Sequence record: MW250786
From: Escherichia phage UPEC06
DNA length: 64,000 bases
Direction: 5' to 3' (one strand)
The position numbers and the translations under genes are program-made. Below are positions 2 through 35,925 of this stretch, piece after piece; positions within the stretch are counted from its first letter, which is position 1, and every line of letters begins with the position of its first letter. The notes under the pieces were generated by a model. The model saw only the letters and a program-made list of their open reading frames with translations. It searched no databases and had not been told where the DNA came from.

Positions 2-1747
2 GGCGATAAAGGCGACAAGGGTGATATCGGAACGGGTATCGTAGCTCGTGGCGTTGTTGCAACCCAAAGTGCACTTCCTTCCGGCGCAGCACCTGGTGAT
101 TTCTACGTTGTAGAAGATGAAGGTAACGGTTACGCTTGGGACGGTACAGCTTGGGTTTTAACTGGATTAGCTCGTGGACCTCAAGGTCTTAAAGGCGATA
201 CCGGAGAAACCGGAGCCAAAGGTGATAAGGGCGATAAAGGTGATGCAGGCGATGCACTTAAGCTGAGAGGCTTGGTTGCAACTTCCGCTGAACTGCCTTC
301 CACTGCTGAACTTGGTGACTTCTATGTCGCTGAAGACACCGGAATTGGTTACGCTTGGGATGGTGTTGCTTTCGTTTCTGCCGGAACCGTTAGAGGACCG
401 CAAGGTGAAGTAGGGCCGCAGGGTGAAGTTGGTCCTCAAGGACCTCAAGGCGAGAAGGGAGATGCTGGCGAGCAAGGTCCTCAAGGATTGGTCGGTGAAA
501 CAGGTGCAAAAGGTGATAAAGGAGATAAGGGTGACGTTGGCTCTGGTCTGATTCCGAGAGGAACTTTACCATCTCAAGCAGATCTTCCTCAAACTGGTGA
601 AGTTGGTGACTTCTACGTAGCTAACGATACTGGTATTGGCTATGCTTTTGATGGAACTGCATTCGTAGAAGCTGGAGTTGCCCGTGGTCCACAGGGTGAA
701 CAAGGACCCCAGGGTGAACAGGGACCACAAGGACTTAAAGGTGATACTGGTGAAACAGGTGCTCAGGGACCTCAAGGTGTTCAAGGTGAGAAAGGTGATA
801 CCGGAGAACGTGGAGAGGTAGGTCCGCAAGGTGATCAGGGTCCGCAAGGTGAGCAAGGTCCTCAGGGTGATATCGGACCAGGTGTAGAGATCATTGGACG
901 ATTTGATACCTCTGATGAATTACCTTCCACGGGTACTTTGGGTCAAGGTTACCTTATCCAAGGCGACTTCTGGGGTTGGACTGGTGCAGCATACGAGAAC
1001 TTGGGTCGTATTCAAGGTCCGGTTGGACCAGTAGGTCCTACGGGTGACCAAGGACCACAAGGCCCTGTCGGTAACAAAGGCGATAAAGGCGACCAAGGGA
1101 CCCTTTGGGTAGTTTTTGCTCGTGCACCAATGGTGAGCGATGGTCGTGTTAACGATCTGTACCTCAACTCTTCCACTCTGGAATATTACCGTAAAACTTC
1201 CGCAACGAACTGGGCACTGCTCGGATTCTTAGGTGGTGGTAACGTGTATGACGCACCAGGGGACGGAAAGCTGTATGTCCGTACTGATGGTGGTTGGGTT
1301 GAATTACCTACCGCAGAAGTTCTGGAAGCACCTCGTGATGGTAACCAATACGTCCGTAAAGACGGCGCTTGGACAACTGTTACAGTTCCTGTAACGGAAG
1401 CACCACTTGAAGGTGGATTCTACGTCCGTGAAAATGGTGCGTGGGTTAAACTGGATCAGTACGATTTACGTGTTGTTGCTTCAACTGGTGCAATTGATGC
1501 AAGCTCTGGTAATGCTTGGACTTTAGATGGTACAACCAACAAGTCCTTGACTATCACCGGATTGCCAGCAGGAAGGGCTAAAACCATAGTTTTACGATTC
1601 ACTGGTAACGGTGGTCAGATTAACTGGGATAGCCAGATCGCTTGGTCTAACGGAACAGCACCGACCCTCGGAGCTACCCGCACTATCCTGACCCTGTTCT
1701 GGGATGGTGAATTCCTGACTGGTACTCAGGCAATGACTGTAGGTTAA
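2..1747 (+). CDS. collagen-like repeat fibre protein, 5' partial (reading frame open from window edge)
   Basis: Frame of the 272..1747 ORF stays open back to nt 2; G-X-Y triplet runs ([10 protein letters not shown]) alternate with 4 copies of a ~25-aa motif GDFYVxxDxGxGYAWDG; stop at 1745-1747. Confidence 0.75.
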
Positions 1748-2459: not shown

Positions 2460-4058
2460 ATGAGTAAAAGTATTAGAGGAATGGCAGGTCATAATAACGG
2501 TGTTTTTTACGGAAATGCCCTTTATGACTTAGAAAGAAAGGTTAAAATGGATTTTAAAGATATCATGGAAAAAGGTGATTCCAGCCAAACACCTGGTCCA
2601 GAAGGTCCACAAGGACCAAAAGGGGATACTGGCCCTGCCGGACCTGTAGGTCCTGTAGGTCCGCAAGGACCACAGGGTGAGATCGGGCCTCAGGGTCCTA
2701 CTGGCCCTCAAGGACCTGTCGGAGCTACTGGTCCTACCGGACCTGAGGGTAGTGAAGGACCACAAGGCCCTCAAGGAGAGCAAGGTATAGCTGGTCCAGT
2801 AGGACCAAAAGGGGATACTGGTGAACAAGGTCCTCAGGGAGAGCAAGGACCCGCTGGTCTAAAAGGCGATACTGGGGATATTGGCCCTGCTGGACAAGAA
2901 GGGCCAATAGGTCCGACTGGCCCAACTGGCCCTGCCGGACCAAAGGGGGATGTTGGTCCTCAAGGACCTAAAGGCGAAACTGGTGAGCAGGGACCTATTG
3001 GACCACAAGGCCCACAAGGGGATGTTGGTCCTGTAGGTCCAGCAGGGCTTACTTTCCGAGGTTTTTATGATCCTTTAGTTGAATACTCTCAGAACGATAC
3101 TGTATCTTACAACGGATCTACTTATTTTTCCTTAAGAACAAGTATAGGCGCTAGTCCAGACACATCACTTGAAGATTGGTCTTTATTGGCAGCAGAGGGA
3201 GCAAGAGGCCCACAAGGCCCAACTGGCCCTCAGGGACCTAAAGGCGACCAGGGTGAGATTGGTCCTGCCGGAGCTACCGGTCCTGAAGGTCCGACTGGCC
3301 CAACTGGCCCGACTGGACCCGCTGGACCGAAAGGGGATAAAGGAGATAAAGGAGAGGTTGGACCTCAAGGACCTAAAGGCGACCAAGGGGTTATGGGAGA
3401 ACAAGGACCGCAGGGTATCGCTGGAACTACTGGACCTGCTGGTCCACAAGGACCTAAAGGCGACAAAGGAGATGTTGGCCCTCAAGGTCCCGCTGGTCCA
3501 CAAGGTTTGGATGGTATCCAAGGCCCAGCGGGTCCCCAGGGGATTAGAGGAATACAAGGACCTAAAGGCGACACTGGTGAGCAGGGAGAGAAAGGGGATA
3601 AGGGTGACAAGGGTGAGAAAGGTGATGCAGGAATATCAAGAACATTCCTTAAGGTTAAAACATCATCTGTTGGCACCAATCACGCGATCAAAATGCCAGC
3701 ACCTCTTGATAACCTATCTATAGGCATAAGGCTTGATTCAGCGGTACGTTTTAGTATTAGGGGTTGGATTGATACAGATACGACAGCCAGAAATGTTAGG
3801 GGGGATATTGAAGGCTTCAATAACTCTGAAAATTACTTCAATACAACGGTAAGACAATTGATATCTTCATCAACTGCAACTGGCACAACCCTTGTAGCCG
3901 ATATCAGCGAATTCCAAAGAATTAGGCCATATACATTTAGCTTCTTTGAAACAACAACAGAGACAATGTGGAGAGTAACTATAACTCTCTTCACGTCAGG
4001 GTATGTAGTAACTGACAATCAATGGCTATGTATAGAAGCTGTTAGACTTGATGCGTAA
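2460..4058 (+). CDS. collagen-like triple-helix repeat protein with C-terminal globular domain
   Basis: Two long G-X-Y runs ([14 protein letters not shown]...) separated by a non-collagen segment; AAGGAG upstream. Confidence 0.75.
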
Positions 4059-6461: not shown

Positions 6462-7877
6462 ATGGCTTATGAAGATAAGGTAGTTGACGTCGAGGTAACT
6501 CTTGGCACTCAACCTATTGATACCGTAGGGTTTGAAACCCCAATGTTCTTAGCAGTACACAACAACTTCCCTGAACGTCTCCGTCTGTACGGGTCTTTGG
6601 AAAGTCTGGTTGGTGATGGATTTGCAGTTGGTTCCGCAGCGCATCAGTTTGCATCCAATGCATTTGGCGGTTCTTTTGCTCCGCAACTGGTGGCTATTGG
6701 TCGTATGTCTATGTCGGGTTCTCGAATCGACTTTACTGGCACTACCAATACCGAACGTGTTGTTGTAAATATTACCATCAATAAGGTTGTTAAAGCAATC
6801 ACCATTTTGGTTAACGTTGGAAACACCCCTGGTCAGATCGCAACCGCTCTGGCAGAAGGCATTAACAACGATGCGGATTTGGCTGGTCGCGTTACTGCAA
6901 CTGTTGAAGGTGGTGTCGTCGTTGTTGTACAATCCGCAGAAATTATCAGCGTAGGAAAAGGCGAAGGTAATTACAAGATTGTAAACACCTCTGTTGAAAC
7001 TGTTGCAACTGTTCTTCCGCAGGTACTTGCTGAAAACCACAACTGGTACTTCCTGTCTCACGAACAACGTTCTGATGCAGATATCGTTGCAGCGGCTGAA
7101 TTTGCACAAGCCAATTATAAACTGCACGTATATAATTCCAGTGACAGCGATGCTCTGGCAGCAGCTAACCAAAGCGCTTCCGTGTTTGATACACTGAAAG
7201 CTCTGGGTTACAACTCTCTGGGTACTTACGACAAAGAAGCGGATGTAGAATTCACCGAAGGTTCTGTTATCGGTGCAATGGCTGCCAACGATCCTTCTTA
7301 CGGTGACTCTATTCACCTGAAGACAATGCCTGGCATGAAGCCTTCTACCATCTCCGAAACTCAGCGTAGCAACGCTTGGGGACGTAACGCAAACATCTAT
7401 CGTGCAATGTACGGCACTAACAGCTACATCGAAGGTCGTACCTCCAGCGGTCAGTATGTTGACGTTATTCGTTTCTCCCATTGGCTGAAATTTCGCATGG
7501 AAGAATCTGTATTCGGATACATGAAGCGTCGTTCTGATCAAGGCCAGTCCATGAAGATGAGTGATGAAGATCTTCCGGTTCTGCGTTCTATCCTGTTCAA
7601 TAATCCAATCAACATCGGTATTCGTAACGGTGGTATTCTGACTGGTTATGATACAGTGAACCGTGTGAGCTACGATCCAATCATTACTATTCCTCGTCGT
7701 GCTGAAATTCCAAGCAACGACTTGGCTAACCGTATCCTGCGTGATGTTAAAGTTGAAGTAGTTTACAACAACTCCCTGCACTACGTTAAAATTCGCGCTG
7801 CTGTTGTTCTGGATCGTCCTCAAACTACGACCCAAAGCACTCAGACTTCTTTCACTACTTCTTCTGTAGGGGTGTAA
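6462..7877 (+). CDS. putative tail sheath protein
   Basis: 471 aa; position in the order sheath-tube-chaperones-tape measure; strong AGAGGA RBS. Confidence 0.5.
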   Translation: MAYEDKVVDVEVTLGTQPIDTVGFETPMFLAVHNNFPERLRLYGSLESLVGDGFAVGSAAHQFASNAFGGSFAPQLVAIGRMSMSGSRIDFTGTTNTERVVVNITINKVVKAITILVNVGNTPGQIATALAEGINNDADLAGRVTATVEGGVVVVVQSAEIISVGKGEGNYKIVNTSVETVATVLPQVLAENHNWYFLSHEQRSDADIVAAAEFAQANYKLHVYNSSDSDALAAANQSASVFDTLKALGYNSLGTYDKEADVEFTEGSVIGAMAANDPSYGDSIHLKTMPGMKPSTISETQRSNAWGRNANIYRAMYGTNSYIEGRTSSGQYVDVIRFSHWLKFRMEESVFGYMKRRSDQGQSMKMSDEDLPVLRSILFNNPINIGIRNGGILTGYDTVNRVSYDPIITIPRRAEIPSNDLANRILRDVKVEVVYNNSLHYVKIRAAVVLDRPQTTTQSTQTSFTTSSVGV

Positions 7878-13934: not shown

Positions 13935-14627
13935 ATGGCTTACGTAGATCGTTATGATGCAGCACTGTCTGTCTTTGTCGGAAGATATCTGCGAAACAAC
14001 GTGCATACTAACATCCGAGGAACAGTGGTTGGCGTTAATTACGCCATTCCATCTGTTGATGTTAAACCTATGGCACAAACTGAATTTGAGAACGGAACAG
14101 TAGAAGCTTATCCGGTTATTTACGATGTTCCGATTAACTTCCCTTCCGGTGCGGGTGGAAAGGCAAGATTATCTATGCCTATAAAAGTCGGAGATCTGGT
14201 AGGTGTTGCTTTCTCTGAAAGAAACGAAGGTGACTTCAAGGATGTGAATACCCATCAACTATTCCCTGGTTGGGCTGTGACACAGATATTTACCGAAGGT
14301 AATGGAAAGGTTGCTCATCCAGATAACGTTGTTCTTGAGAATGACAAAGGCGTTATGACATTGATGCCTGATGGGACGATGACGTTTCAGAATCCCGCTG
14401 CCAATCTAAAGATTGAGCAAAGTGGCAAGATGACATTTTCTAATGGCCCTGCAAACATAGAAGTAATGGAATCTGGAATGGTAAGGGTGAATGGTTGCAC
14501 CATAACAACCTCCGGTAACGTGATCACAGCTTCCGGTGTTGATCTGGAAGATTTTTATGCCGACTACCTCAACCATAGACATAGTGGCGTTGAAAGAGGT
14601 GGTGATATAAGCGGGGTTAAAGTATAA
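13935..14627 (+). CDS. putative baseplate central spike (gpV-like)
   Basis: 230 aa, position in baseplate cluster; C-terminal HRH motif near the tip. Confidence 0.45.
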   Translation: MAYVDRYDAALSVFVGRYLRNNVHTNIRGTVVGVNYAIPSVDVKPMAQTEFENGTVEAYPVIYDVPINFPSGAGGKARLSMPIKVGDLVGVAFSERNEGDFKDVNTHQLFPGWAVTQIFTEGNGKVAHPDNVVLENDKGVMTLMPDGTMTFQNPAANLKIEQSGKMTFSNGPANIEVMESGMVRVNGCTITTSGNVITASGVDLEDFYADYLNHRHSGVERGGDISGVKV

Positions 14628-15151
14628 TGGCTACAGTATTTAAAGACTTCCTTTTAGATCCCTCAACAGGGGATCTTGATTTCTCGACTAGGACTTTGCA
14701 GGTTGTTACCTCTAACCAGATGAGTTTACGTCAAAGGCTTTATCTTCGCTTCGGGATCTGGCAGGGTACTTGGTATTTCGATGAAACAATAGGCTTCCCT
14801 TACGGAATGTTTATTGCTAAGAAACTATCAAAAACTGTACTGGATAATAGGATAAAGCAAGAAGTTCGTCAAGAACCGGATGTGATAGCGATAAAAGATT
14901 TCAATTCTTCTGTGGAGATTTACAGCCGTAGTTATAAATGCTTCTTTACGGTTGTAACGTCAGAGGGTGAAGAGATTAACTTCGCATTCTTAGGTGATGA
15001 TACTTATGAGTATCCAACACCGCCGGAAGGTAACGTTGAACTGTGTGGTGACGAAGGTTCTTTAATTGAGTTCAAGAACAAACTTTACTACCTGATTAAC
15101 TTTAGATTACCGAAATATGGTGACTCTACTTGGGTCAACACTTGGAAATAA
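14627..15151 (+). CDS. putative baseplate wedge protein (gp25/gpW-like by position)
   Basis: 174 aa ORF overlapping spike stop (ATGA). Confidence 0.4.
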   Translation: MATVFKDFLLDPSTGDLDFSTRTLQVVTSNQMSLRQRLYLRFGIWQGTWYFDETIGFPYGMFIAKKLSKTVLDNRIKQEVRQEPDVIAIKDFNSSVEIYSRSYKCFFTVVTSEGEEINFAFLGDDTYEYPTPPEGNVELCGDEGSLIEFKNKLYYLINFRLPKYGDSTWVNTWK

Positions 15152-15242: not shown

Positions 15243-16727
15243 ATGGCGTCCAATTACGGTCTAACGGGTAGTGGATTTAACCTCCCGCCGATGGAAGACT
15301 TGATTCAGGAAACGAAGAAAACTTTCAAGAATGAATTTGGTGAAGATTTCAATACCGAAAGTAACTCAGTTGCTGACAAACTCATTTCTATCTTTAACGA
15401 ACGTGAATATCAACTCTGGTTGTTGATGGGTTCTGTTTATTACGCACAGACAATGCAAGGTGCAGAAGGTATTTACCTTGACGACCTTTTATCTAAGCGT
15501 GGTATTTATCGTAACGGGAAGACTCGAAGCACAGGTCAGGTTCAGTTGACCATTGATTCCACTATCCCTTACAACATGATTTACTCTGCCTCTGCATACA
15601 CCATCGACAACGATTATCGTCTATCTAACGATGTTCAGGTTGCAGGAAACATTTTTGCTCAGGTCATCCGTGGTTCGGATCTTTCTGTCGGAAGTTACCG
15701 ATTACAGATCCAGAACATCAATGATCAATCGATCAAGACCATGACATATCAATTGACAGCCACCACTGGTGCGCCTGTTATCGCATTCTTCTCTGCAATT
15801 AAAGATTTCATTGTGGAGAACACTATCCTGTCCAACCGTGATAAAATCATTATTGATTCCGTAGCCAACTCTATCCACATTGGGTATGATAGTAACAAGA
15901 ACCTTATCGGCTTGTCAAGCAGAATCGATTTCCGTACTCAACCATTGGCAGGTACTAGAACTATCACAATGGATGTTAGAGCTACGGAGCCTGGTTTAAC
16001 ATCTCGTGATGCTTTCAGTGTTCGTGGAATAAGTCCGGTTCCGGCGGGTTTCCTTGACTTGACGAACCTGATTGCATTCACCCCAGGGTCAGACGTAGAA
16101 TCAGATAATGAATACCGTCTCCGTGCAATTGATGCAGTTAACACAGGAAAGGCCACTCGTGCAGCGATCCTTTCTGCACTGCTGAACAAAGTTGAGGGTA
16201 TAGAAAAGGTAAGGATCTTTGCAAACAATACCGACAAGACTAACTCTGTTGGTGTACCTCCTTACTCCTTCATGCCTGTTGTTTACGGTGGTAACACTGC
16301 TGAAATCAGTCAGGTACTTTACGACACTATCGCGGGTTCCAACAATACGTCAGGGAGTACTTTCTACAATATCACCACTGAAGATGACCAAGTAGAAACA
16401 ATCTGGCACACGAAGGCCCAAGCTCGTAACCTGAGTATGAGAATCAGCTATCGTGGAAGACCTCTTTCTGTTGTCGAAGAAACAACTATCTCAAATAGCT
16501 TGATTACTGCGATAAATGGGACTATTATAGCCGGAACTCTGTACAACGTTCAGTTGGTAGGTACAGTTATCAGTTCAACGGCATCATCTCGTTTCACTCA
16601 AGTTTTTGTTGAGATTAAGAACGTAGAAGAACCTGAGTCTTCCTATGTTGGAACAGATGTATCTGCCGATGTTACTGAAGTATTCGCCCTGTCCGCAGAG
16701 AATATTGAATTCCGTCAGATAGTTTAA
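15243..16727 (+). CDS. putative baseplate J-like protein
   Basis: 494 aa ORF, AGGAGG RBS, position after gpW-like gene. Confidence 0.4.
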   Translation: MASNYGLTGSGFNLPPMEDLIQETKKTFKNEFGEDFNTESNSVADKLISIFNEREYQLWLLMGSVYYAQTMQGAEGIYLDDLLSKRGIYRNGKTRSTGQVQLTIDSTIPYNMIYSASAYTIDNDYRLSNDVQVAGNIFAQVIRGSDLSVGSYRLQIQNINDQSIKTMTYQLTATTGAPVIAFFSAIKDFIVENTILSNRDKIIIDSVANSIHIGYDSNKNLIGLSSRIDFRTQPLAGTRTITMDVRATEPGLTSRDAFSVRGISPVPAGFLDLTNLIAFTPGSDVESDNEYRLRAIDAVNTGKATRAAILSALLNKVEGIEKVRIFANNTDKTNSVGVPPYSFMPVVYGGNTAEISQVLYDTIAGSNNTSGSTFYNITTEDDQVETIWHTKAQARNLSMRISYRGRPLSVVEETTISNSLITAINGTIIAGTLYNVQLVGTVISSTASSRFTQVFVEIKNVEEPESSYVGTDVSADVTEVFALSAENIEFRQIV

Positions 16728-16736
16728 GGAGAAAGA

Positions 16737-17378
16737 ATGGCAGAGGTTACAGAAAAGAAGGATGTTAACCACATCCATCCTCTGCCTGATTTCGTCAAAG
16801 GGGGTATTGATTATTTACCCCCTGAGGTCTTTGAGAATAAAGATAACATCCAAAAGGTCCTTGAGATCTTCTTGAAACGTCTTGAACTCATCGATCAGAA
16901 AGCTGTTGAACTGGCAGAGATGAGAACAATCATCAATGCAGAGGGCGACACTCTCGACGAGATAGGCAGACAAAATGGTATCTTCCGTAACGGATTGAAT
17001 GACCCTGAGTACAGGGCTGTTATTATAATCCTTACAGGTATCGGATCTAAAAGCGGAACAAGGTCTGAAATAATATCCACACTGAAGCAATTATTCGGCG
17101 AAGAGGGTGTGACTACCTACAAGGGTAGAAACTATCGTATGGATATCAACATCTTCAACACCTGTGTGGAAGTTGAGCTTATTCTTGACCAAATACTTGA
17201 TATGCTCCCTCTGGTGACTCACTTGCGAGTTGTGGAGAATCAGGGATACCCGTTTGGATTTGAGGGTGACGAACAAGCATTTGGGTGGGCATCCGTCTAC
17301 GACACTGATCGTACTGGCGCGGGTGGACTTGCAACTTTAGTTTATGTATCTGACGACGAAGACCCTTGGGGCTTTTAA
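16737..17378 (+). CDS. putative baseplate protein (gpI-like by position)
   Basis: 213 aa, directly follows J-like gene. Confidence 0.4.
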   Translation: MAEVTEKKDVNHIHPLPDFVKGGIDYLPPEVFENKDNIQKVLEIFLKRLELIDQKAVELAEMRTIINAEGDTLDEIGRQNGIFRNGLNDPEYRAVIIILTGIGSKSGTRSEIISTLKQLFGEEGVTTYKGRNYRMDINIFNTCVEVELILDQILDMLPLVTHLRVVENQGYPFGFEGDEQAFGWASVYDTDRTGAGGLATLVYVSDDEDPWGF

Positions 17379-17390
17379 TGGGAGAATTTA

Positions 17391-19025
17391 ATGGCTAGAC
17401 CAACAACACCGATTGTTGTCTTTGCGGCACAAGATGTTAACCTTCCTGGCACTGGAAGACCTAACAAATCAAAACCGATTGATGACCTTTTAGCGAAGGG
17501 CTATGACAAAGGACAAAAACCAGCGGCAGAGGAATTCAACTATATTCTTCACCAATCTGGTGCTTGGCTTAACTGGATCGTAGAAGAGAAGTTCCCTGAA
17601 GTTGAAGAAGAATATAAGCGACTGATTCAGGAACTCGAAACACGAGTAAACAATCAACTGGAAGTTATTCGTGAAGATGTTGCAAACGTAAGACAATCAG
17701 TTGCAACCTTGAGAACTTATGTAGAGCAAACTGTTGCAGACATTCGTCGTGAGATCACTGCGGTTGATCAGCGTGTTACTCGTTTGTCTCAAGACTTGGA
17801 TAATGCTGTTTCCAGATTAAACGCCCGTATTGATGAGCTTGAACCTCGTTTAGTTCCGATCGGTGCAATTCTTACTTGGGCAGGCCAAACACCTCCGGCG
17901 GGATTCTTGGAATGTAATGGACAGGTATACAGTACATCTCAAAACCCGAAACTTTATCAAGTCCTTGGTAGGAACGTAGTACCTGATTATCGTGGATTGT
18001 TCCTTCGTGGCTGGGCGCACGGATCTGGCGCTTACGATCCTGACTCTGGTCGTGCTTTGGGTTCTATTCAAGGTGATGCGATTCGAAACATTACTGGCGC
18101 GATGGGTTACGAAAGTATTCGTACTGACCACGGATATCGTGAGAGTGGTGCACTTTATACGCAATATAACTCAAACTCAGGTCCTGATCACGATCGTAAA
18201 AACCCAGCGGGTGATGTTCGATTTGATGCAAGCCGTGTTGTTCCGACTGCACCAGAAAACAGACCTAAGAACGTCGCAGTGATGTATATTATCAAGACTG
18301 ATCAGGCACAAGGTACGGGAAGTCTGTCACCAACTGCACTTGTTACTACGCCGGACACTATTACAAACCGCGTAGGGTTTACTCAAGGGATTTCTGCTCA
18401 GGTTCTCCCTGCAAACTTGGCAAGTCAATACCCTGTGACGTGGACTTCTCAGAACGGTAATGTTGCAACAGTGGATAGTGCAGGTAACGTAAGATTAACT
18501 GGTCCAGGTGAAACTAACATTATCGCCTCTATCTCTACTGGTATCTCTGCCCAAGTTAAAATAGTTTCATATACACCACTGACAGCAATCAGTATCGGTA
18601 GCATACCTAGTGTAGAGGTTAATGATTCCGAGGTTATTCCTGTTAATAGAACACCTGCTAACTCTAACGAGCCTCTCGTGTATTCTACCAGTAATGCTAA
18701 CGTCGCTGTTGTAACTCAAAGCGGTTACGTATCTGGTGTTTCTCCAGGTACAGCGGTAATAACAGTTCGTGGGTCTATCACAGGCATCCAAGCCACAAGA
18801 CAGGTCACTGTAATTCCTGCAACGATTGTTCAGACCATAGAGGATGTTCGTTTAGGTCTTGAGCAACAGACGACAATGAATGGCGATGATTATACAAATC
18901 CTGTGCGTGCTCCGGCGGGTTGTGTTATTACTGGCGTTGTATCAGCAGGTCTTGGGTTAAATCAAGGTTATTATAAACCGATCCAGAAGCGTATATCTGG
19001 CGTATGGGTAACGGTGGAGGGTTAA
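17391..19025 (+). CDS. tail fibre protein with tail-collar domain and Ig-like (Big_2-type) repeats
   Basis: Motif LTWAGQTPPAGFLECNGQVYSTSQNPKLYQVLG resembles the phage tail collar domain; two Big_2-like segments (VTWTSQNGNVATVDSAGNV..., VYSTSNANVAVVTQSGYV...). Confidence 0.65.
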   Translation: MARPTTPIVVFAAQDVNLPGTGRPNKSKPIDDLLAKGYDKGQKPAAEEFNYILHQSGAWLNWIVEEKFPEVEEEYKRLIQELETRVNNQLEVIREDVANVRQSVATLRTYVEQTVADIRREITAVDQRVTRLSQDLDNAVSRLNARIDELEPRLVPIGAILTWAGQTPPAGFLECNGQVYSTSQNPKLYQVLGRNVVPDYRGLFLRGWAHGSGAYDPDSGRALGSIQGDAIRNITGAMGYESIRTDHGYRESGALYTQYNSNSGPDHDRKNPAGDVRFDASRVVPTAPENRPKNVAVMYIIKTDQAQGTGSLSPTALVTTPDTITNRVGFTQGISAQVLPANLASQYPVTWTSQNGNVATVDSAGNVRLTGPGETNIIASISTGISAQVKIVSYTPLTAISIGSIPSVEVNDSEVIPVNRTPANSNEPLVYSTSNANVAVVTQSGYVSGVSPGTAVITVRGSITGIQATRQVTVIPATIVQTIEDVRLGLEQQTTMNGDDYTNPVRAPAGCVITGVVSAGLGLNQGYYKPIQKRISGVWVTVEG

Positions 19026-19027
19026 TT

Positions 19028-19540
19028 ATGAGAATGAATAACTTCAAGCTTTATACACCGGAAGTTAAATCTTTCGGAGAAGGAGTTCAGTATTTTCAGG
19101 ATGATAAGGGTCGTGATTTCTACGACTCTCGTGCACTATTCAAAAAGAAATATGTTGTTTTCTTTGATGAGCATAATATTGTCCGTGGCTGGGCAAAGAG
19201 TGAAGAAGTTACCCGTCTTCACCCAGGTGGTTTATCTGTTGTGGATCTTAATACCCTCCCTAAAGATTTTTCTTTGCAAGGTGGTGTTTGGTCATTCAAC
19301 GGAAAACAGGTAGTTAAGGCAGACTATGATCCTGCTTTTAGCACCGCTGCAAGAAAGGCTGGCATTCTGCAAGTGATCGGTTCTGTTATCGTTCCGCTTC
19401 AGGATGCTGTTGAATTGGGAGATGCTACAGATGATGAGCTTGAGAAGTATAACGATCTTCGTAAGATGAGAGTTAAAGTCATGCGTATCCCTGATAGCAC
19501 CTCCCCTGGTGATATCGACTGGTCAGAGTTCACCTTTTAA
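19028..19540 (+). CDS. putative tail fibre assembly protein
   Basis: ~170 aa ORF immediately after fibre gene; ATG at 19028 chosen over overlapping track start at 19004. Confidence 0.4.
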   Translation: MRMNNFKLYTPEVKSFGEGVQYFQDDKGRDFYDSRALFKKKYVVFFDEHNIVRGWAKSEEVTRLHPGGLSVVDLNTLPKDFSLQGGVWSFNGKQVVKADYDPAFSTAARKAGILQVIGSVIVPLQDAVELGDATDDELEKYNDLRKMRVKVMRIPDSTSPGDIDWSEFTF

Positions 19541-19550
19541 CCTTAGATGA

Positions 19551-19568
19551 GTCGGGCTTCGGCCCGAC
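19551..19568 (+). other. stable UUCG hairpin without U-tract
   Basis: GTCGGGC-TTCG-GCCCGAC, lies in the 5' end of the track ORF 19547..19912. Confidence 0.4.
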
Positions 19569-19579
19569 TATGGAGACTT

Positions 19580-19912
19580 ATGATTGTTGATATAATGGCA
19601 GTTCTTAAAGCACTTTGGGGTCTTTTAACATTTATTTTGCTGGGTGCACTAAAGATCTTTTACACCGACTTTAAAAAATTAGAGTCACGTCAAAGCGAGC
19701 TTGAAAAAGATGTTCTTCGTTTGAAGGAATCTGCGGTTACTAAGGATAGTATCGATGCCATTCTTGACCGTAAGATAAAACATATCACTGATACGATCCA
19801 GGATATTAGGACCGATATCACAGATATGCGAAAGGAAGCAAAAGAAGAAAACCACGCTCTACAGAAGGATATTCGAGAATTACTAAACAAAATTATTGAG
19901 AACCGCAAATGA
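19580..19912 (+). CDS. small membrane/coiled-coil protein
   Basis: Hydrophobic N-terminal segment then charged helical region; start uncertain (19547, 19580 or 19595). Confidence 0.4.
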   Translation: MIVDIMAVLKALWGLLTFILLGALKIFYTDFKKLESRQSELEKDVLRLKESAVTKDSIDAILDRKIKHITDTIQDIRTDITDMRKEAKEENHALQKDIRELLNKIIENRK

Positions 19913-20367
19913 TTACAGCCATAATATATGGCATTTGTTTCGTAATCCTTGCTACTCGAAAAGAGAGTGGAACAAAGATAATGGCTGGGCTTTGCCTAGC
20001 CTATCTCGTATTGGAGAACCTGATCCTTTGGTTCTTCTCTACGCAACAATATTTCGACATCACTCTTTATTTTAATGTTCTCTGGACATTGGATTCGATA
20101 CTGCTTTTCACTATGGGTTGTACAGTGAAAGGATTACGACAAAAACTTATCGTATGCCTAAGTATTCCGTTCATGCTTATTCAAGTGTTTGCAATCCAAT
20201 ATCCAGAATTGTTCCCCTTATGGGTTTACGAATTCGCTCTTAGAGACGCTCACAAATATTTCATAGAAACCTTTGTGTTCGTTTATTCTTGGAAGGATAA
20301 TACCGTACCGGAATGGATAAGGACAGCAGTGGTGATATTTCTGGTGCTCATTGCCCATATGGTATGA
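19909..20367 (+). CDS. multi-pass membrane protein
   Basis: Several hydrophobic segments; ATGA overlap with upstream ORF. Confidence 0.45.
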   Translation: MITAIIYGICFVILATRKESGTKIMAGLCLAYLVLENLILWFFSTQQYFDITLYFNVLWTLDSILLFTMGCTVKGLRQKLIVCLSIPFMLIQVFAIQYPELFPLWVYEFALRDAHKYFIETFVFVYSWKDNTVPEWIRTAVVIFLVLIAHMV

Positions 20368-20389
20368 ACATTGATAATGAAGGTGATCT

Positions 20390-20650
20390 ATGTTAAAATT
20401 TCTCAAAGACCTCGTTACCTCTGCGGTGGAACCAGATAAAGCTTCCCATACAAAGTTTTGGTCTAACGTAGGTATGGCTGCTATGACTGCCGTCTTTCTA
20501 TGGTATGGATTCAACAATACATTGCCTGAATGGTATGTGTGGCTTTATGCTCCTACGGTAGTGGCTCCACACCTTTTGAGTGATCTCATTAACCTCCGCT
20601 GGGGATTATCTTTGAAAAAAGATAAAGGCCCTTCTGACGAAAACAAGTAA
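20390..20650 (+). CDS. small membrane protein
   Basis: Hydrophobic central segment (MAAMTAVFLWYGF). Confidence 0.4.
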   Translation: MLKFLKDLVTSAVEPDKASHTKFWSNVGMAAMTAVFLWYGFNNTLPEWYVWLYAPTVVAPHLLSDLINLRWGLSLKKDKGPSDENK

Positions 20651-20662
20651 GAGGAGAAAACT

Positions 20663-23600
20663 GTGTCGTCTAATACTGATATATTGGCACTGGTAAGTAC
20701 CGAAGCAGATCTTGCTGTTGACCAGATCATTGAAGACTCTCGAAGACTTCATTTGATCGTCAACGGAACTGCAACAGAACAAGCTGTTACAGAAGATGGT
20801 AGCTTAATCCCTAGTGTACGTAAAGCGATAATTGATAACTTTTATTTTAAAACTCCACCGTTACCGTGGAGAAATGGAAGTTCAGTTATTGAATTCAATC
20901 AGTTATATGCATTTACCGATGTAAATGGCAACGTAACTTGGTGGTATGCCCCAGGTGCAACTACCAGCACTCCTGTCGTTATGCGAGACAGTCCAATCAA
21001 CGACGGTAAGTTCAGACCTTTCTTCGATAAAGGTAACATTCAAGAAACTTACGCCCCTATCCTTTCCCCTGTTTTTCGTGGAAACCCTACTGTACCTCTT
21101 GCTGCTGAAGGTGATAACTCATTTACTATCGCGAACACAGCTTGGGTTAGTCGAGAAATAGAAAAAGTACGTGGTGAGGTTCTTGAAGAGTCCAGAGGTG
21201 AATTCCAAAACATTATCGTTGCAGATGATGCGAGTCTGAAAGATCTCTATGTAAGTGGAGAAACCATCTTCACTGGCGACAGGATCGCTGCTCTTGATGC
21301 CGAGTTATCTTTAAAAAGATTACGAATGACAGGGACAGACGCAGAAATCGCATTTGAACAAAATGGCGTTCCACCCCAGGCAGGGTTAACAAAAAGAACA
21401 AATATCAAGCCTTTCCAAGTCACCACTGGTGTTGTTGATACCGATAATATAACTGCGAGAGAGATCAAGGTTGGAAATACCTCTGTTTCCACGAATTCTC
21501 TTGATGTTGATGGATTCATGCAAGGTGACTATCTTCACTTAGAGGGTAATGCCAATAACGCAGAAGACCGCCCACAACTGATCGTTGACGGTATTGCGGA
21601 AATAAATACTCTTCGTGTGACGAACACCATTGAAGGATTGAAGGCTGACGTTGAAGGTCTGGATATTAATCCTAACAGCATTGTGGTTGAAAGAACTGCG
21701 GAGATTAAGGGAAATACAACCCTTGGTGCAGATCTTGCCGTTACTGGCAATACGGTATTGAAAAATGTAAGAATCGAAGGTACTCTCACGGGTGCTGGAA
21801 TCGGTGTTGACGGGAAAGACATTTCCCCTCGTAATGTGAGTGCAACATCCGTTACTGTGGCAGAGAGCTTAAACATTACTGGACCTACTACGGCTTCCGG
21901 CGACGTTACGGTAAACAACCTGACGGTTAATGGAACACTCAGGGCCGATATCGACTTTGGAACTGCTGCTGTTGAATTCCAAGATCTGACTGTGACTAAC
22001 AAGGCAACGATCAAGGATCTTGAAATCACCGGAAACCTGACGGGAGTTACAGTCTCTGTTGATGGTGAAGCAATCTCCCCTTCTTCGGTGACAACCACAG
22101 GAAACATCGATGTTGGTAACAACATGCGTGTTCGTGGTGATATTACTCTGGACGGTGAGTTAAGTATCCCAAGCTTAGATACTGGGGACATAACGGCTGC
22201 TGCAATTGATGGTGCGAGCCTCTCAGTTAGTGGCGACATTACCGCAGGAACAACTTCGACCACAACGGTTAACAATCTTGTAGTCACAGGAACCACTACA
22301 GGAATCACTGTAACGGGCAATGTTGACGGACAAGACATTCTCCCATCCTCTGTAGAAACAACGTCTGTAGTGGCCTCTGAGAGAGTTACAACGGCAAACC
22401 TGACATCTACAGGTGACACTCAGGTAAATAACCTGACAATTACTGGAACTGTAACAGGATTCGATGTAGATCTTACCGGAAAGGACATTCAGGTTAATAC
22501 CTTGACGGTTACTCGCGGGTCAACTTTTGACGAGGTTACTGCTAATAACATAACCAACAATCAAAAGATTACCACAGTAGACCTTCAGGTTACTGGAAAC
22601 CTGACGAATGCAGACGGTGAACAATTCTTTGCAAACGTCACTGGTCAAGATATACTTCCTAATAGTGTGCAGTCTGCAACGTCTGTGAGAACTAAAACGC
22701 TACGTGTCGAAGAGACTAGCCTATTGGAAGGTGCTGTTACCTTAAATGATGGTTTGACTATCACTGGTGGTAATATCACATCTGTTCAAGGTCAAGCAAG
22801 CTTCAATGACGTACAGGTATTTGGATCTCTTCTGGACGCGAATGGTAATGCCTTAGGGACAGCGGAAAGCATAAACGGTAAAGATATCTCTCCTCGTAGC
22901 GTTACTGCTCAAGTTGAGATTCAGACTACTGCAATTGTTGCTACAGGTCAAGCTGAAGTTGGTTCTTTGATTTCAACTGGACAAGTAATGGCAGGAAGCT
23001 TAGAGGTTTCAGGGATAGGTAATATTGGTCAGGTTATTACCGACGACGTTCGTGCTGGAAAGGTAACTTCTGGTAACACCGTTATTACTCGTACTGTTGG
23101 ATCTAGCGATCCTGCTCTTGAAGTTCGTGGACCAGGTGAGATTCAGGGTGACCTTAATGTAACCGGAACTGTAACTGGTAACATTGACCTTAGCTCTCAA
23201 GACGTTAACGTTGCTTCAATGACCTCAACGGGAACAGTAAATGCCCTTTCCATTGAGTCTCGTACATCGGTAACTGGATTGTCTGGTACATTCGGTGAAG
23301 ATTATGAAGGTGCACCTACCTATGGTATAACTTCTCTTTCCGGCGCAAACATCAACAAGAACCTTCGAGTTGGTGGAAACCTGACTGTTGTTGGTAACAT
23401 CTCTGGCAATATCGACTTATCTGGAAAGGCGATCGAGCCTGCATCTTTGTCTACCACGACAGCTACGTTAACGACGGCGAACATAACAGACCTGACTGTA
23501 ACTGGTCAGTTTAATATCCCGACTGTACCGTTAAATGTTCAATCCCTTAGTTCTGAAAACGCTATTTCCGCAAGCAAGTTCAGCACCACACCAAAAGAAG

Positions 23601-23896
23601 TAAGCACCACCTCTTCTTCTTACATCCCAGACGGCTCAACGAGCATATATAACGTAAACGTTATAAATGATGTTGAAGTGAAAGCGCCGATTGGCCTGTT
23701 GAGTTCAGGAAAAGGTGAGTCGGTATTCCTCTTCTTTGAACAGGATGGTACTGGTGGACATGCGGTAACATTCGGATCGGAGTTTGTTGTGCATGGTACT
23801 GAAACCATCAAAACAGATGCAAACACTGTATCGGTAGTTAACATGGTTTATCGTGGCAAAGGCCCATTGATTGACGTATTCATCACTCGTCGCTAA
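20663..23896 (+). CDS. large tail fibre/tailspike-like protein with internal periodic repeats
   Basis: 1077 aa, Thr/Gly/Asn/Val-rich; motif G(K/Q)DI(S/L)PxSV recurs at least 6 times; GTG start with GAGGAG. Confidence 0.6.
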   Translation: MSSNTDILALVSTEADLAVDQIIEDSRRLHLIVNGTATEQAVTEDGSLIPSVRKAIIDNFYFKTPPLPWRNGSSVIEFNQLYAFTDVNGNVTWWYAPGATTSTPVVMRDSPINDGKFRPFFDKGNIQETYAPILSPVFRGNPTVPLAAEGDNSFTIANTAWVSREIEKVRGEVLEESRGEFQNIIVADDASLKDLYVSGETIFTGDRIAALDAELSLKRLRMTGTDAEIAFEQNGVPPQAGLTKRTNIKPFQVTTGVVDTDNITAREIKVGNTSVSTNSLDVDGFMQGDYLHLEGNANNAEDRPQLIVDGIAEINTLRVTNTIEGLKADVEGLDINPNSIVVERTAEIKGNTTLGADLAVTGNTVLKNVRIEGTLTGAGIGVDGKDISPRNVSATSVTVAESLNITGPTTASGDVTVNNLTVNGTLRADIDFGTAAVEFQDLTVTNKATIKDLEITGNLTGVTVSVDGEAISPSSVTTTGNIDVGNNMRVRGDITLDGELSIPSLDTGDITAAAIDGASLSVSGDITAGTTSTTTVNNLVVTGTTTGITVTGNVDGQDILPSSVETTSVVASERVTTANLTSTGDTQVNNLTITGTVTGFDVDLTGKDIQVNTLTVTRGSTFDEVTANNITNNQKITTVDLQVTGNLTNADGEQFFANVTGQDILPNSVQSATSVRTKTLRVEETSLLEGAVTLNDGLTITGGNITSVQGQASFNDVQVFGSLLDANGNALGTAESINGKDISPRSVTAQVEIQTTAIVATGQAEVGSLISTGQVMAGSLEVSGIGNIGQVITDDVRAGKVTSGNTVITRTVGSSDPALEVRGPGEIQGDLNVTGTVTGNIDLSSQDVNVASMTSTGTVNALSIESRTSVTGLSGTFGEDYEGAPTYGITSLSGANINKNLRVGGNLTVVGNISGNIDLSGKAIEPASLSTTTATLTTANITDLTVTGQFNIPTVPLNVQSLSSENAISASKFSTTPKEVSTTSSSYIPDGSTSIYNVNVINDVEVKAPIGLLSSGKGESVFLFFEQDGTGGHAVTFGSEFVVHGTETIKTDANTVSVVNMVYRGKGPLIDVFITRR

Positions 23897-23935: not shown

Positions 23936-25171
23936 ATGATCCCTTTTCCAATTATTAATTTCGGTGGCAGTGTTCCACTACCTGTAGGCGTTACAATCAA
24001 GTATGCAGTAAGTACCAGCACCGGAAATATTTTTATTCTGCTTACCAATGGGCATCTATATGTAACTGGATCTAATTATCTAAACGGACTTGGTAAAACA
24101 GGGACCACAAATAATGCAACTTCGGGATGGTCACTTACTAACACAGGTGTTGAAGAAGTTTATGAGGCAGGAACAGAAAGTACACTGTACGGCGGTGTGT
24201 GGGTTAAGAAAAATAATAACCACTATGAATATATCTCTGCTGTAATCTTCCCCACTGTTGACACAACTCTCCAAAACAGTTGGAACGTCTTGCCTGAATC
24301 TGCATACATTGTCGATGGCGTAAATATCTTATCTTCCGCAATACAAATAGCCAGATCATACGCGATCCAGCCCGACGGCACTGTTTACAGACTTCTTCCA
24401 GAGGGACCTCAAGTAGCTTGGCCTGAGAAAACAAAATACCTGTATTTTGCAAACTATAATGCTATTCGTGTCGAGGTTGACGGAACTTTAAAATACCGAG
24501 GCGACAATGGTATAGATCAAGTGGCAGGCACTTCTGCCGGAACAACATTATCAACTTGGACAACCATCGGGGATTCTTCTGTAAGGTATATTAGGGCAAA
24601 ATGTGCTCGTGGTCAAGTGGCTAACACGAGTGGCGGTTCAGGTGCTCAATCTATTGTACTTGTTGTTGCACAGAGGGAAGATGGGTCATGGGATGCAGTT
24701 GGATCGGCAGCAAGAGCAGGGATAAACTCAACCAACGTCCTCGGTCCTAATTTAGCACCTATGACAAGCATTCCTGCTGGAGTTGAAGTTTACCTAACTA
24801 ACCAGATCAGTTATACAAACGCAAGTGTGAGCACTAGGGCAGCACTGCAAGTATTCATCTCTGACAGGGTTAATGGAGTTTATCAATCGACAGGTGGACA
24901 AGGTGGATACACATACTCCTTATTTAGAGATCTTCCTATAACCACCAACGCAACATCTTTTGAAAGCATACATCAAGATATTATAGATGATGGCGGCATT
25001 CTCCATATGACTGGCTCATTGGCTGACACTTTCAAAGTGATTGTTAGTGGTAATGGTAATCTTTACTGGACAGGGAGAGGTTACACAGGGGCTATGTACC
25101 CTGCTGACTTTACGGCCTCTAATACGATAGCTCAGAAGTTTAACTTGGAAGGTATAGTTATTCCAGCATAA
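23936..25171 (+). CDS. putative fibre-associated/receptor-binding protein
   Basis: 411 aa ORF with AGGAGG RBS, last gene of + strand structural module. Confidence 0.4.
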   Translation: MIPFPIINFGGSVPLPVGVTIKYAVSTSTGNIFILLTNGHLYVTGSNYLNGLGKTGTTNNATSGWSLTNTGVEEVYEAGTESTLYGGVWVKKNNNHYEYISAVIFPTVDTTLQNSWNVLPESAYIVDGVNILSSAIQIARSYAIQPDGTVYRLLPEGPQVAWPEKTKYLYFANYNAIRVEVDGTLKYRGDNGIDQVAGTSAGTTLSTWTTIGDSSVRYIRAKCARGQVANTSGGSGAQSIVLVVAQREDGSWDAVGSAARAGINSTNVLGPNLAPMTSIPAGVEVYLTNQISYTNASVSTRAALQVFISDRVNGVYQSTGGQGGYTYSLFRDLPITTNATSFESIHQDIIDDGGILHMTGSLADTFKVIVSGNGNLYWTGRGYTGAMYPADFTASNTIAQKFNLEGIVIPA

Positions 25172-33221: not shown

Positions 33222-35852
33222 TCAGTGGCACGCCCCCCAGTTCATCCCTGTGAGGTATTCACCTGTTATGTGTACAGGAGATTTCATCATTCGTGCTGCT
33301 TGCTCTACACAACGAACAACCATCTCTCCAACTGGACAATACATGATCGTGTAGATTCCATTCTCATCAGGATCACACTTAAACTTCCCTTCTTTCACAC
33401 AATGACCATCCAAGATCATTTTCTTAGCCAAGCAAGCTTCTACAAATTTCTTCGCGTCAGCTTCGTTGTCAAAGGTCCAAGTCTTCTTGAACTTGTGCGG
33501 CACTTCAAGCTGGTATTCATCATGATAGTAAATGATACGGCGAACACCCTCATCATACCAACCTTTCTTGACCAACTGCCAGTGCAGGAGGATACCCACC
33601 AAGTCAAACAGTGCAGCACCACCATTCTGCTGATAAGCATTAAGCAATGAGTGTTTGGAACGAGTGTAGATCTTACGTCCATCAAGACCGTAGATGAATC
33701 GCTTACCGTTAGCTTCCCAAAACTTCTCTAATGCTTCTTTACGACCTTTCAAGCCGATGTTGCTATCCCAGAATGCGTCGATTACTGCCTGGGCTTTCTC
33801 AAGAGTGATTCCCAGCATTGATGCAATCTTCGCCGCCTGCGCCCCGTACATGATTCCGTATGTCACGCCTTTACCTTCACCACGAGAAACCTTCTTCCCT
33901 GCCGCTTTGGTATACGCTTCTGCGTTTCGGGAGTGAGCATCTCCAGATTCCATGATACGAAGATAAGCGCCACCATCGAAATCATACGCGCCCCATGCCG
34001 CGATCATACCTTCCAAGTTTGAACCGTCGATACCTACCTGATATTTACCCTCGGAGGCTCTAAACAGTTCACGCATCTCTTTACCGAGAAGAACTTTCTC
34101 ATCCGGCTTAGGTACGTTTGCTACGATCGTATGCTTACGACGACCTGTGTTAGTTATTCCACTATAACGGGCCGGAAGTTTACCGTCAACCCGTAGACGT
34201 GGATGGTTAAGCCATCCGGTATCAACCTTCTCTTCTTTCAGTGGGTCAAGAACAGATCGTCGGTTACGTAAAGACAGCCATTTAACAATCTGTTTAGCCA
34301 TTTCACCATCTACTCGCTCAAGGTTAGGGCAAAGACCCTGCTGATCCTTAAGTTGTGGAGATGTTGGTAATGCACGGGCTTTCTTACGGAAGAACTTGAA
34401 CATCTTTTCTTTATCGGACCACTGTTTAGGGGTGATCGATAAGCTTTTCAGAATCAGATCACGATACTCCGTCTGATCCAAATCTTCAATATATTGACGA
34501 ACAATCAGGTCAACCTCACTATCTGGACGTTGTTTCTTGAACTGATCTTTAGTTGCATCCTTTGTACGCCAAATTGTTGGAATCCACCCTGCATCACGGA
34601 TCAGGAACTTCTTAACGTCGTCCTGGTTACCAATACGCATCGGGATCATAATGTCCGGCATCTTTTGTTCTTTGATATCCATCAAAGCACGAGCCATATC
34701 TTCCGGCGGCAAAGGAACAAGCCCTTGCTGCTTAACGTTTTGTGCACGGATAAAATCACCCATTTTGGATTCATCTTCTACACCGTGTTCAACACAATAC
34801 TTGATCGCGGCGGCAGTAAGAGATCCGTCAGCCTTAAACGGCTTACTTGGTGCACCTTTAAACTCTAATGCTTCCCAATTGATATTATAACCTAACTTCT
34901 CTAACCATTTCCAACCTGTACCGGAAAGAGATCCATCACCCTTGAAAGGCTTAGATGGGAATGTCGGTTGTGCTGATTTCGACATTTCTTTCTTCGGTAA
35001 CTTAGGTTCAACCTCTAACTCAATGTCTGTCATCATCTTATCGATACGATCACGGAGCTTGAGTGCTTTTTCTTCATCAAATGAAACACCCTGAATCTCT
35101 TGCTCAATCATCAGGTAGTCGGTCAGCATACCTCGACGCAAGGCATTCTTCCAGTTGATCATTTTAAACTTCTTCTGATCTTTGTCTGTTTCATCCTTAA
35201 ACATGAAGCGTTTATCATCGGGCATGGATTCACAAGAGATCTCTTTCATCAGAGCATCCCACACCATTTCGTTGATAATTACGTCTTCAATAATACGATC
35301 GCAATATTTCCAAAGTGGAAGGCCACGCCAATCTTCAATCGCCACTTTCTGGTTGGCTACTCGCATACCCCAAGCTTCAAGCCCGTGAGGGCCTACAGGC
35401 TTCATTTTACCTGTGACTGGGTTCTTTACCATCTCGGGACAACCACGAGGCAGAGGGCGATCTGGATACAATGTACGAGACATTGACAGTGTATCAAAGA
35501 TGGTCACTTGTTTACCATTAATCGTACCCATGCAACCAGGGTCTGCAAACATATCGTAAGTTGTTCCAAGCATCTTCTTAAACAACTGGAGGTCGTAGCC
35601 GAAGATGTTGTGGATAGCAATTGCCTTAGGCTCTGTGACAAACCATTCGTTTAATTCTTCAATAGTGCGAATCTTAAAGTTTTTACCTTTAGATTGGATA
35701 AATTTAACAGCTTGATCGTAACCTTCCCGTTGGGGATCAAGAAAGATGTTCCAGTTATCTTTTTTATACTCTTTAAACAGGACGCAGTGAATGAGATCAA
35801 CCTCTGTCAACAGGCCGTTAGCTTCCGCATCTCCAATAAATAAGCCTTTCAT
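33222..35852 (-). CDS. family A DNA polymerase with 3'-5' exonuclease domain
   Basis: Exo motif FIGDAEANGL; pol motif A DGSNLEGMI, motif B KGVTYGIMYGAQ, motif C YYHDEY; start at 35852 with AAGGAGA. Confidence 0.85.
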   Translation of the reverse strand: MKGLFIGDAEANGLLTEVDLIHCVLFKEYKKDNWNIFLDPQREGYDQAVKFIQSKGKNFKIRTIEELNEWFVTEPKAIAIHNIFGYDLQLFKKMLGTTYDMFADPGCMGTINGKQVTIFDTLSMSRTLYPDRPLPRGCPEMVKNPVTGKMKPVGPHGLEAWGMRVANQKVAIEDWRGLPLWKYCDRIIEDVIINEMVWDALMKEISCESMPDDKRFMFKDETDKDQKKFKMINWKNALRRGMLTDYLMIEQEIQGVSFDEEKALKLRDRIDKMMTDIELEVEPKLPKKEMSKSAQPTFPSKPFKGDGSLSGTGWKWLEKLGYNINWEALEFKGAPSKPFKADGSLTAAAIKYCVEHGVEDESKMGDFIRAQNVKQQGLVPLPPEDMARALMDIKEQKMPDIMIPMRIGNQDDVKKFLIRDAGWIPTIWRTKDATKDQFKKQRPDSEVDLIVRQYIEDLDQTEYRDLILKSLSITPKQWSDKEKMFKFFRKKARALPTSPQLKDQQGLCPNLERVDGEMAKQIVKWLSLRNRRSVLDPLKEEKVDTGWLNHPRLRVDGKLPARYSGITNTGRRKHTIVANVPKPDEKVLLGKEMRELFRASEGKYQVGIDGSNLEGMIAAWGAYDFDGGAYLRIMESGDAHSRNAEAYTKAAGKKVSRGEGKGVTYGIMYGAQAAKIASMLGITLEKAQAVIDAFWDSNIGLKGRKEALEKFWEANGKRFIYGLDGRKIYTRSKHSLLNAYQQNGGAALFDLVGILLHWQLVKKGWYDEGVRRIIYYHDEYQLEVPHKFKKTWTFDNEADAKKFVEACLAKKMILDGHCVKEGKFKCDPDENGIYTIMYCPVGEMVVRCVEQAARMMKSPVHITGEYLTGMNWGACH

Positions 35853-35925
35853 TTTTTCTCCTTCTTTAAACTCCAACTAGACTAAAACAAAGCCCAGCCG
35901 GAGGTATTACCCTTCGGCTAGGTTA

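Follow-up and report, generated by a model that had tools for sequence, protein, structure and literature searches.

What does the long, repetitive gene at positions 20663..23896 of a 64,000-nucleotide stretch of the Escherichia phage UPEC06 genome (sequence record MW250786; the whole stretch is referred to here as the window) encode, and what might the motif that recurs along its product do? An earlier note, made from the letters alone, had described the product as a fibre in which a short Gly/Ile/Pro motif returns again and again, suggesting a repeated beta-rich module. Our analysis points, with good confidence, to a Vequintavirinae myophage of the Septuagintavirus clade and its long tail fibre (LTF), with a shaft built from diverged modules for which the motif would serve as joints.

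A long tail fibre of the phiTE type

UPEC06 is a 143,140-bp phage that infects avian pathogenic E. coli, and the source of the window is a ~140-kb Vequintavirinae myophage. The protein is an exact match to GenBank QUL77297.1, "putative tail fiber protein 2 [Escherichia phage UPEC06]", and matched phrog_4549 'tail fiber protein' with an E value of 8e-249. The gene is 93-96% identical at the nucleotide level to those of Escherichia phages vB_EcoM-LTH01, A5-4, A7_1, W70 and A73, which belong to the Septuagintavirus clade (PMC11370258). W70_107 (112 kDa), the W70 orthologue, was detected with 996 spectra when purified virions were analyzed by tandem mass spectrometry after ionization by electrospray (ESI-MS/MS) (PMC11370258). 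W70_107 and its A5-4 counterpart A54_248 are ~96-98% identical to the UPEC06 LTF, gene order is shared, and we noted no difference of substance. The gene itself is an already annotated tail fibre of a known phage clade, and there is nothing new in it; the accessible part of the published Septuagintavirus work (PMC11370258), however, contains no description of an internal repeat in the LTF.

The closest structural counterpart is chain g, "Putative tail fiber protein" (793 aa), of PDB entries 9CUY and 9MJN (phmmer E 1.3e-233), which describe the baseplate of phiTE, a flagellotropic phage of Pectobacterium (Hodgkinson-Bean et al. 2025, PMC11972413). We take chain g to be the LTF of phiTE because the other phiTE fibre, "Short tail fiber" (chain c), matches a different, 544-aa open reading frame (ORF) of the window (17391..19025, E 3e-202). 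The phiTE alignment begins at residue 1 of the UPEC06 protein and thereby confirms the GTG start. With the phiTE homology, the phrog match, the GenBank annotation and the presence of W70_107 in virions, the claim that the gene encodes a fibre is well founded. We mapped the following features along it:

20663..23896, + strand: LTF gene, 1077 aa plus stop, GTG start
20652..20656, + strand: Shine-Dalgarno AGGAG, 6 nt 5' of the GTG
20663..21190, + strand: N-terminal baseplate-attachment region (aa 1-176: helix 7-34, globular domain ~60-122, helix 159-176)
21191..21610, + strand: proximal beta-rich shaft without canonical Pro motif (aa 177-316), from AlphaFold2 (AF2) strands of low confidence
21611..23542, + strand: repeat shaft of about ten modules of 50-107 aa (aa 317-960), from hhalign, module alignment A3 and orthologous conservation
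22211..23095, + strand: shaft segment missing from the 793-aa phiTE/CB7-type LTF (aa 517-811), from the phmmer alignment and global alignment gaps
23555..23893, + strand: C-terminal beta-sandwich domain, presumed distal/receptor-binding tip (aa ~965-1077)

The two fibres are colinear: residues 1-516 of the UPEC06 LTF correspond to phiTE 1-516, and residues 812-1077 to phiTE 516-793. Motif copies 1-3 and the C-terminal domain are common to both, whereas UPEC06 has ~295 additional shaft residues that contain three strict copies and one degenerate copy of the motif. The hosts also differ (E. coli for UPEC06, Pectobacterium for phiTE), and flagellotropism is reported for phiTE and suggested by analogy for Septuagintavirus.

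In phiTE, the LTF is trimeric and predicted to be 512 Å long (PMC11972413). The modelled part, residues 14-171, comprises a helical bundle at the N-terminus, a globular domain, a short stretch of beta-helix and another, short bundle of helices, and is bound to wedge 2 and to the sheath initiator (PMC11972413). The rest was predicted by AlphaFold3 to be an extended beta-helix with 'flexible regions' (PMC11972413). Residues 1-176 of the UPEC06 LTF align to the modelled part. An AF2 monomer run on a 44-sequence alignment likewise returned a helix (7-34), a globular domain (pLDDT ~80) and a second helix (159-176), and a Foldseek search of the PDB with this model gave only 9cuy_g/h/i, at up to 70% identity. 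Homology extends over the full length of the protein, including this attachment region, and four of its phiTE neighbours (short tail fibre, wedge 1, wedge 2 and sheath initiator) are all encoded upstream in the window. By homology, the attachment mechanism of phiTE is very likely conserved in UPEC06.

At the other end, the last ~100 residues were predicted by AF2 to form a beta-sandwich (pLDDT ~90, rising from ~60 at aa 960), for which Foldseek found no fold match in the PDB. These two domains, the N-terminal globular and the C-terminal one, are the only confident parts of the AF2 model. Conservation within the family is highest over aa 1-140 and lowest over the distal ~160 residues (aa ~921-1077), a gradient in keeping with an attachment end that is conserved and a distal end that varies more.

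Other searches added little. Nothing beyond 9cuy was significant in a family-profile search of PDB sequences (E<=0.01) or as a Foldseek match in the PDB (E<=0.001), and no Pfam or NCBIfam family exceeded its threshold for the LTF. Precomputed Pfam hits PF26208 and PF26209 are listed for LTF homologues; we found no mention of PF26209 in the literature. In BFVD, Foldseek recovered phiTE, the identical protein itself and a large number of small proteins resembling fibre tips, in matches given without coordinates. A reading of the LTF as a tailspike or depolymerase was rejected: there was no Pfam or NCBIfam domain above threshold, no PDB match beyond 9cuy at these cut-offs, and the likeness to colanidase tailspikes was limited to aa 12-117. 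Nor was any T4 LTF chain among the PDB matches of the protein or of the family profile; the T4 gp34-type label occurs only in the annotation of jumbo-phage relatives.

The recurring motif and the modules of the shaft

The LTF is rich in Thr (13.6%), Val (10.3%), Gly (9.9%), Ser (8.4%) and Asn (7.4%), and poor in Tyr (1%) and His (0.4%). Against this background we found 5-6 strict and about four degenerate copies of a motif of the form (V/I)xG(K/Q/L)DIxPxSV. The strict copies, written as G(K/Q/L/E)(D/A)I(S/L/N)PxS(V/I), start at aa 332, 384, 468, 556, 661 and 739; the degenerate ones, which have another residue in place of Pro or are weaker in some other way, begin near aa 434, 606, 845 and 921. 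Individual copies lie as follows:

21656..21682, + strand: motif copy 1, GLDINPNSI, aa 332-340
21812..21838, + strand: motif copy 2, GKDISPRNV, aa 384-392, in DNA repeat family D3
22064..22090, + strand: motif copy 3, GEAISPSSV, aa 468-476
22328..22354, + strand: motif copy 4, GQDILPSSV, aa 556-564
22478..22504, + strand: degenerate copy GKDIQVNTL, aa 606-614, Val in place of Pro, weak module match
22643..22669, + strand: motif copy 5, GQDILPNSV, aa 661-669
22877..22903, + strand: motif copy 6, GKDISPRSV, aa 739-747
23195..23221, + strand: degenerate copy SQDVNVASM, aa 845-853, in a module that matches others at probability up to 96.9%
23423..23449, + strand: degenerate copy GKAIEPASL, aa 921-929

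The regular expression G.DI.P.[SN][VI] matched the LTF five times, and matched at least once in merely 7 of 20,000 residue shuffles. When motif hidden Markov models (HMMs) were built with one copy left out, the omitted copy mostly scored 16-19 bits, against a best score of 7.4 bits in 500 shuffled proteins; the exceptions were the copy at aa 332 (7.1 bits) and that at aa 556, whose first reported value was negative. Four residues hardly change among HMM-selected instances (G 98%, D 91%, I 98%, P 100%), and the interleaved x positions vary freely. The motif occupies orthologous alignment positions in more than 40 homologues from phages of Escherichia, Cronobacter, Klebsiella, Pectobacterium, Enterobacter and Salmonella hosts.

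The stretches between the motifs are also related to one another. A self-BLASTP of the LTF gave the diagonal only, being too insensitive for diverged repeats, and was replaced by profile-profile alignment. When sub-alignments of the inter-motif modules were compared with the full family alignment by hhalign, other modules were recovered with probabilities of 90-98.6% and E values down to 6e-16; by these profiles, the stretches are homologous modules. Their consensus, LxVTGxxTG-x(3-14)-VDG(K/Q)DIxPxSV-x(~20)-LxVxGKTTxxDL followed by the next LxVTG, is longer than the nonamer first described, and the Pro motif is the best-conserved feature of the shaft. At 50-52 residues, the stretches aa 332-383 and 556-605 are the minimal modules; longer ones contain insertions. 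Weak module-like matches extend into the proximal shaft (aa ~248-331 and ~305). In its DNA, the gene shows nothing but short, diverged repeats (15-41 nt), and Tandem Repeats Finder reported only two 2-copy arrays (period 8 and 12) and no tandem array of modules. The module duplications are therefore ancient, with none recent.

These results uphold the recurrence of the motif in at least six copies, six of them strict, on the strength of the shuffles, the leave-one-out HMMs and hhalign. The repeated beta-rich module is equally upheld, by the module homology, the motif statistics and a recurrence of hydrophobic residues every ~5.5 residues (autocorrelation peaks at lags 5, 6, 11 and 16). The measured spacing, at 50-107 aa, is slightly wider and less regular than the roughly 55-80 residues given in the earlier note.

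To compare the fibre with those of related phages, as the earlier note had proposed, we counted strict copies in 65 homologues:

1064-1094 aa: mostly six strict copies (5-7)
722-793 aa, phiTE/CB7 type: three or four strict copies (five in two 734-aa proteins)
~600-720 aa: mostly one to three strict copies (up to four)
1374-1869 aa, jumbo-phage proteins: two to four strict copies

Copy number scales with length and, together with the ~295-residue difference from phiTE, the alignments indicate that members of this family come to differ in LTF length as whole modules bounded by the motif are gained or lost. The Certrevirus 'tail fiber protein 2' (Cronobacter CR3/CR8, Klebsiella KaOmega) is 48-51% identical to the UPEC06 LTF over its full length of 1064-1094 aa and carries six strict motifs at the UPEC06 positions; its distal ~160 residues diverge, and the host genera differ. 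The rV5-like lateral tail fibre of Vequintavirus aligns to aa 6-496 (31% identity) and shares the N-terminal attachment region, and the Phapecoctavirus 'colanidase tailspike' is 43% identical at its N-terminus, to aa 12-117 only. In both, the distal parts differ (glycosidase/tailspike domains), with few or no Pro-motif modules. Fibre proteins from phages of Vibrio, Aeromonas and Klebsiella also share 35-48% identity with the N-terminal ~110 residues of the LTF (20663..21013); judged by these alignments, the N-terminus looks like a shared baseplate-adaptor module carried on unrelated distal domains. The long tail fibres of jumbo phages (the PBECO4, CBB and fENko-Kae01 group; 1374-1869 aa) show 26-28% identity to aa ~170-1077 in those members whose alignment reaches that far and have 2-4 copies of the Pro motif, but their N-termini are different, and they carry precomputed PF26209 but not PF26208.

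We searched a 67-position module profile against 1.84 billion representative proteins and obtained 637 clusters at E<=1e-3, 84 of them at E<=1e-10. Most of the distant matches cover the rung half only. The Pro motif is more restricted: it occurs in two or more copies in only 16 of 139 new matches, and the multi-motif matches mostly have their first motif at aa ~290-330 (Vequintavirinae-type) or aa ~500-690 (jumbo-phage fibres).

Proposed architecture and the role of the motif

We propose that the UPEC06 LTF, by homology with phiTE, would form a homotrimer whose first ~170 residues (a helical bundle, the globular domain and a second short helix bundle) dock on baseplate wedge 2, an arrangement that would couple movement of the fibre to triggering of the sheath. 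Residues ~180-960 would then form a long, thin, beta-rich shaft with a strand-turn period of ~5.5 residues, as in triangular beta-helix windings; the hydrophobic recurrence fits short strand-turn units of this kind. The shaft consists of about ten diverged copies of one ancestral ~50-residue module, each of which would comprise beta-helix rungs that end in LxVTGxxTG and are followed by VDG(K/Q)DIxPxSV. In this arrangement the Gly/Ile/Pro motif would act as structural punctuation, a joint or cap between beta-helical segments, and the joints probably correspond to the 'flexible regions' of the phiTE AlphaFold3 model. Both of our AF2 runs, at low confidence, placed the motifs in coil between runs of short strands. 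The number of modules would set the length of the fibre, which, if the 512 Å per 793 aa of phiTE scales linearly, extrapolates to ~70 nm for UPEC06. The C-terminal beta-sandwich of ~110 residues would be the distal tip that contacts the receptor or another fibre component. A joint or cap, rather than a host-specific binding site, is the best-supported reading of the motif.

Several observations weigh against this proposal. The AF2 monomer run did not resolve the fold of the shaft (pLDDT <50 over aa ~320-830), and a construct in which 50-residue Gly-Ser linkers connected aa 310-485 in triplicate, run with a concatenated alignment, reached a mean pLDDT of only 33. The spacing of 50-107 aa is irregular and not strictly periodic, hence 'period' is a loose term for it. 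The joint role, the beta-helix geometry and the trimer state draw on the experimental N-terminus of phiTE, on its AlphaFold3 model and on our own reasoning, and the match of the LTF to Bactofilin (PF04519), a beta-helical family, stayed below the 27.9-bit threshold (15.3 bits, E 0.024, aa 354-453). As regards the receptor, flagella were suggested by the Septuagintavirus authors by analogy only (PMC11370258).

The Bactofilin likeness raises the question of whether each chain might instead fold alone, as bactofilin-like single-chain beta-helix domains and linkers arranged like beads on a string, rather than as an intertwined triple beta-helix. Bactofilins have a rung sequence pattern and a ~5.5-residue strand period similar to those of the LTF shaft; several LTF homologues carry precomputed PF04519 hits, two long distant matches of the rung profile exceeded the Pfam Bactofilin threshold (57.7 and 68.4 bits), and the autocorrelation peak at lag 16 corresponds to about one winding. 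Bactofilins, however, are cytoskeletal single-chain beta-helices that, unlike the LTF, have no Pro motif. Moreover, autonomous beta-helices are usually predicted well from the monomer, whereas the LTF shaft was not, despite the 44-sequence alignment, and the phiTE trimer was predicted as one extended beta-helix with an intertwined modelled N-terminus (PMC11972413). We therefore regard independently folding chains as unlikely.

A second alternative is that the motif copies are serial ligand-binding sites, for flagellin or a surface glycan, so that the fibre would bind multivalently along its shaft and not by its tip alone. phiTE and other Certrevirus phages are flagellotropic, a strategy that the Septuagintavirus authors suggest may be shared (PMC11972413, PMC11370258), and polar, variable residues occupy the x positions of the motif and could be exposed. 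The fixed Gly, Ile and Pro residues, on the other hand, are typical of turns and cores. The motif also keeps its position and sequence across five host genera and recurs in jumbo-phage fibres, whereas a receptor contact would be expected to vary with host, and the phiTE authors favour the short tail fibre for the first flagellar contact (PMC11972413). Binding sites along the shaft thus appear improbable, and we retain the motif as a putative joint or cap.

The antisense frame, the neighbouring genes and implications

A further question was posed by a long ORF on the opposite strand:

21535..22419, - strand: antisense ORF, 294 aa, GTG start, opposite LTF aa 293-586; not a gene

A stop in this frame requires NNT|TAN, NNC|TAN or NNT|CAN on the sense strand, that is, Tyr, His or Gln codons, and codons of the required kind are almost absent from LTF aa 293-586. 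When the sense codons were shuffled, the longest open run in the antisense frame averaged 183 codons (sd 54), and 294 was reached in 4% of shuffles. Comparison with A5-4 placed 189 of 225 nucleotide differences (84%) at sense codon position 3. Since the two frames share their wobble position, this bias alone does not separate them and leaves some room for a second, overlapping protein, which would have a GTG start, 294 codons and a frame that is intact in LTH01. Such a protein is nonetheless highly improbable. An open run of equal length arose in 4% of the shuffles, codon 147 of the frame is a stop in A5-4, the GTG lacks a Shine-Dalgarno sequence 5' of it, and homology to a solved protein proves the sense frame. 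The ORF is best explained as a by-product of composition, as the earlier note had supposed. A similar 428-aa antisense ORF (6549..7835, - strand) opposite the tail sheath gene (6462..7877, phrog_205) is probably a composition artefact as well. That the same biased composition produced the motif recurrence by chance is a virtually negligible prospect, even with no such repeat in self-BLASTP or Tandem Repeats Finder, and was rejected on the shuffle statistics, on the profile-profile matches between modules (probability up to 98.6%) and on the conservation of the motif at orthologous positions.

Upstream of the LTF lie the baseplate genes and a tail-fibre assembly gene:

14627..15151: sheath initiator, E 7e-87 against the phiTE chain
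15243..16727: wedge 2, E 4e-242 against the phiTE chain
16737..17378: wedge 1, E 2e-104 against the phiTE chain
17391..19025: short tail fibre, 544 aa, E 3e-202 against phiTE chain c
19004..19540: tail-fibre assembly protein of the lambda-gpK type, from Pfam and phrog matches

Between the assembly gene and the LTF are three small ORFs (121, 152 and 86 aa; 19547..20650) with hydrophobic, membrane-like stretches by eye. They match phrog_5345 (itself weakly Rz-like spanin), phrog_7451 and phrog_1322 'membrane protein' and no Pfam family, and could be a lysis or membrane cassette inside the fibre cluster. Directly 3' of the LTF, a 411-aa ORF (23936..25171) matches phrog_15692 (function unknown) and, weakly at its N-terminus, an RCC1-like phrog, with no PDB or Pfam match. 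Mass spectrometry places the product of its orthologue, W70_106, in the virion (PMC11370258), and the UPEC06 protein might be a distal partner of the LTF. Two further fibre-like proteins, at 272..1747 (491 aa) and 2460..4058 (532 aa), have multiple collagen-like/tail-fibre phrog matches (phrog_3904, phrog_5073); one of them could be the counterpart of the 'third putative fiber' of phiTE. Both lie in the most GC-rich part of the window (GC 0.50 over positions 1-2000).

On a larger scale, gene orientation and GC skew change sign at ~25 kb (~25200; + to -) and at ~54 kb (~54000; - to +), and these switches are the borders between the structural module and leftward-transcribed early/replication genes. 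A single 884-aa ORF (33222..35876, - strand) occupies the place at which the annotations of A5-4 and LTH01 show a 'DNA-directed DNA polymerase' split in two around a hypothetical gene (L001 25482-27234; L002 24323-27234). The polymerase region thus differs among these close relatives, possibly through an inserted element in A5-4 and LTH01.

The significance of these findings extends little beyond annotation: the gene is deposited, its orthologue has been found in virions, and the N-terminus of a homologue is solved. The additions made here are descriptive: a precise map of the shaft modules, a longer consensus, and the way in which copy number follows length. The map offers natural cut points for engineering chimeric or shortened fibres, and segmentation points for structure prediction of this fibre class. 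More speculatively, and we would attach little weight to it, the Gly-x-Asp-Ile-x-Pro-x-Ser-Val joints might be programmed hinges, by which a ~70-nm fibre would fold back against the tail and touch the short fibre and a further virion protein before it deploys, with the number of modules tuning fibre reach among the genera of this subfamily; or the joints might double as repeated low-affinity contacts for a filamentous receptor such as the flagellum.

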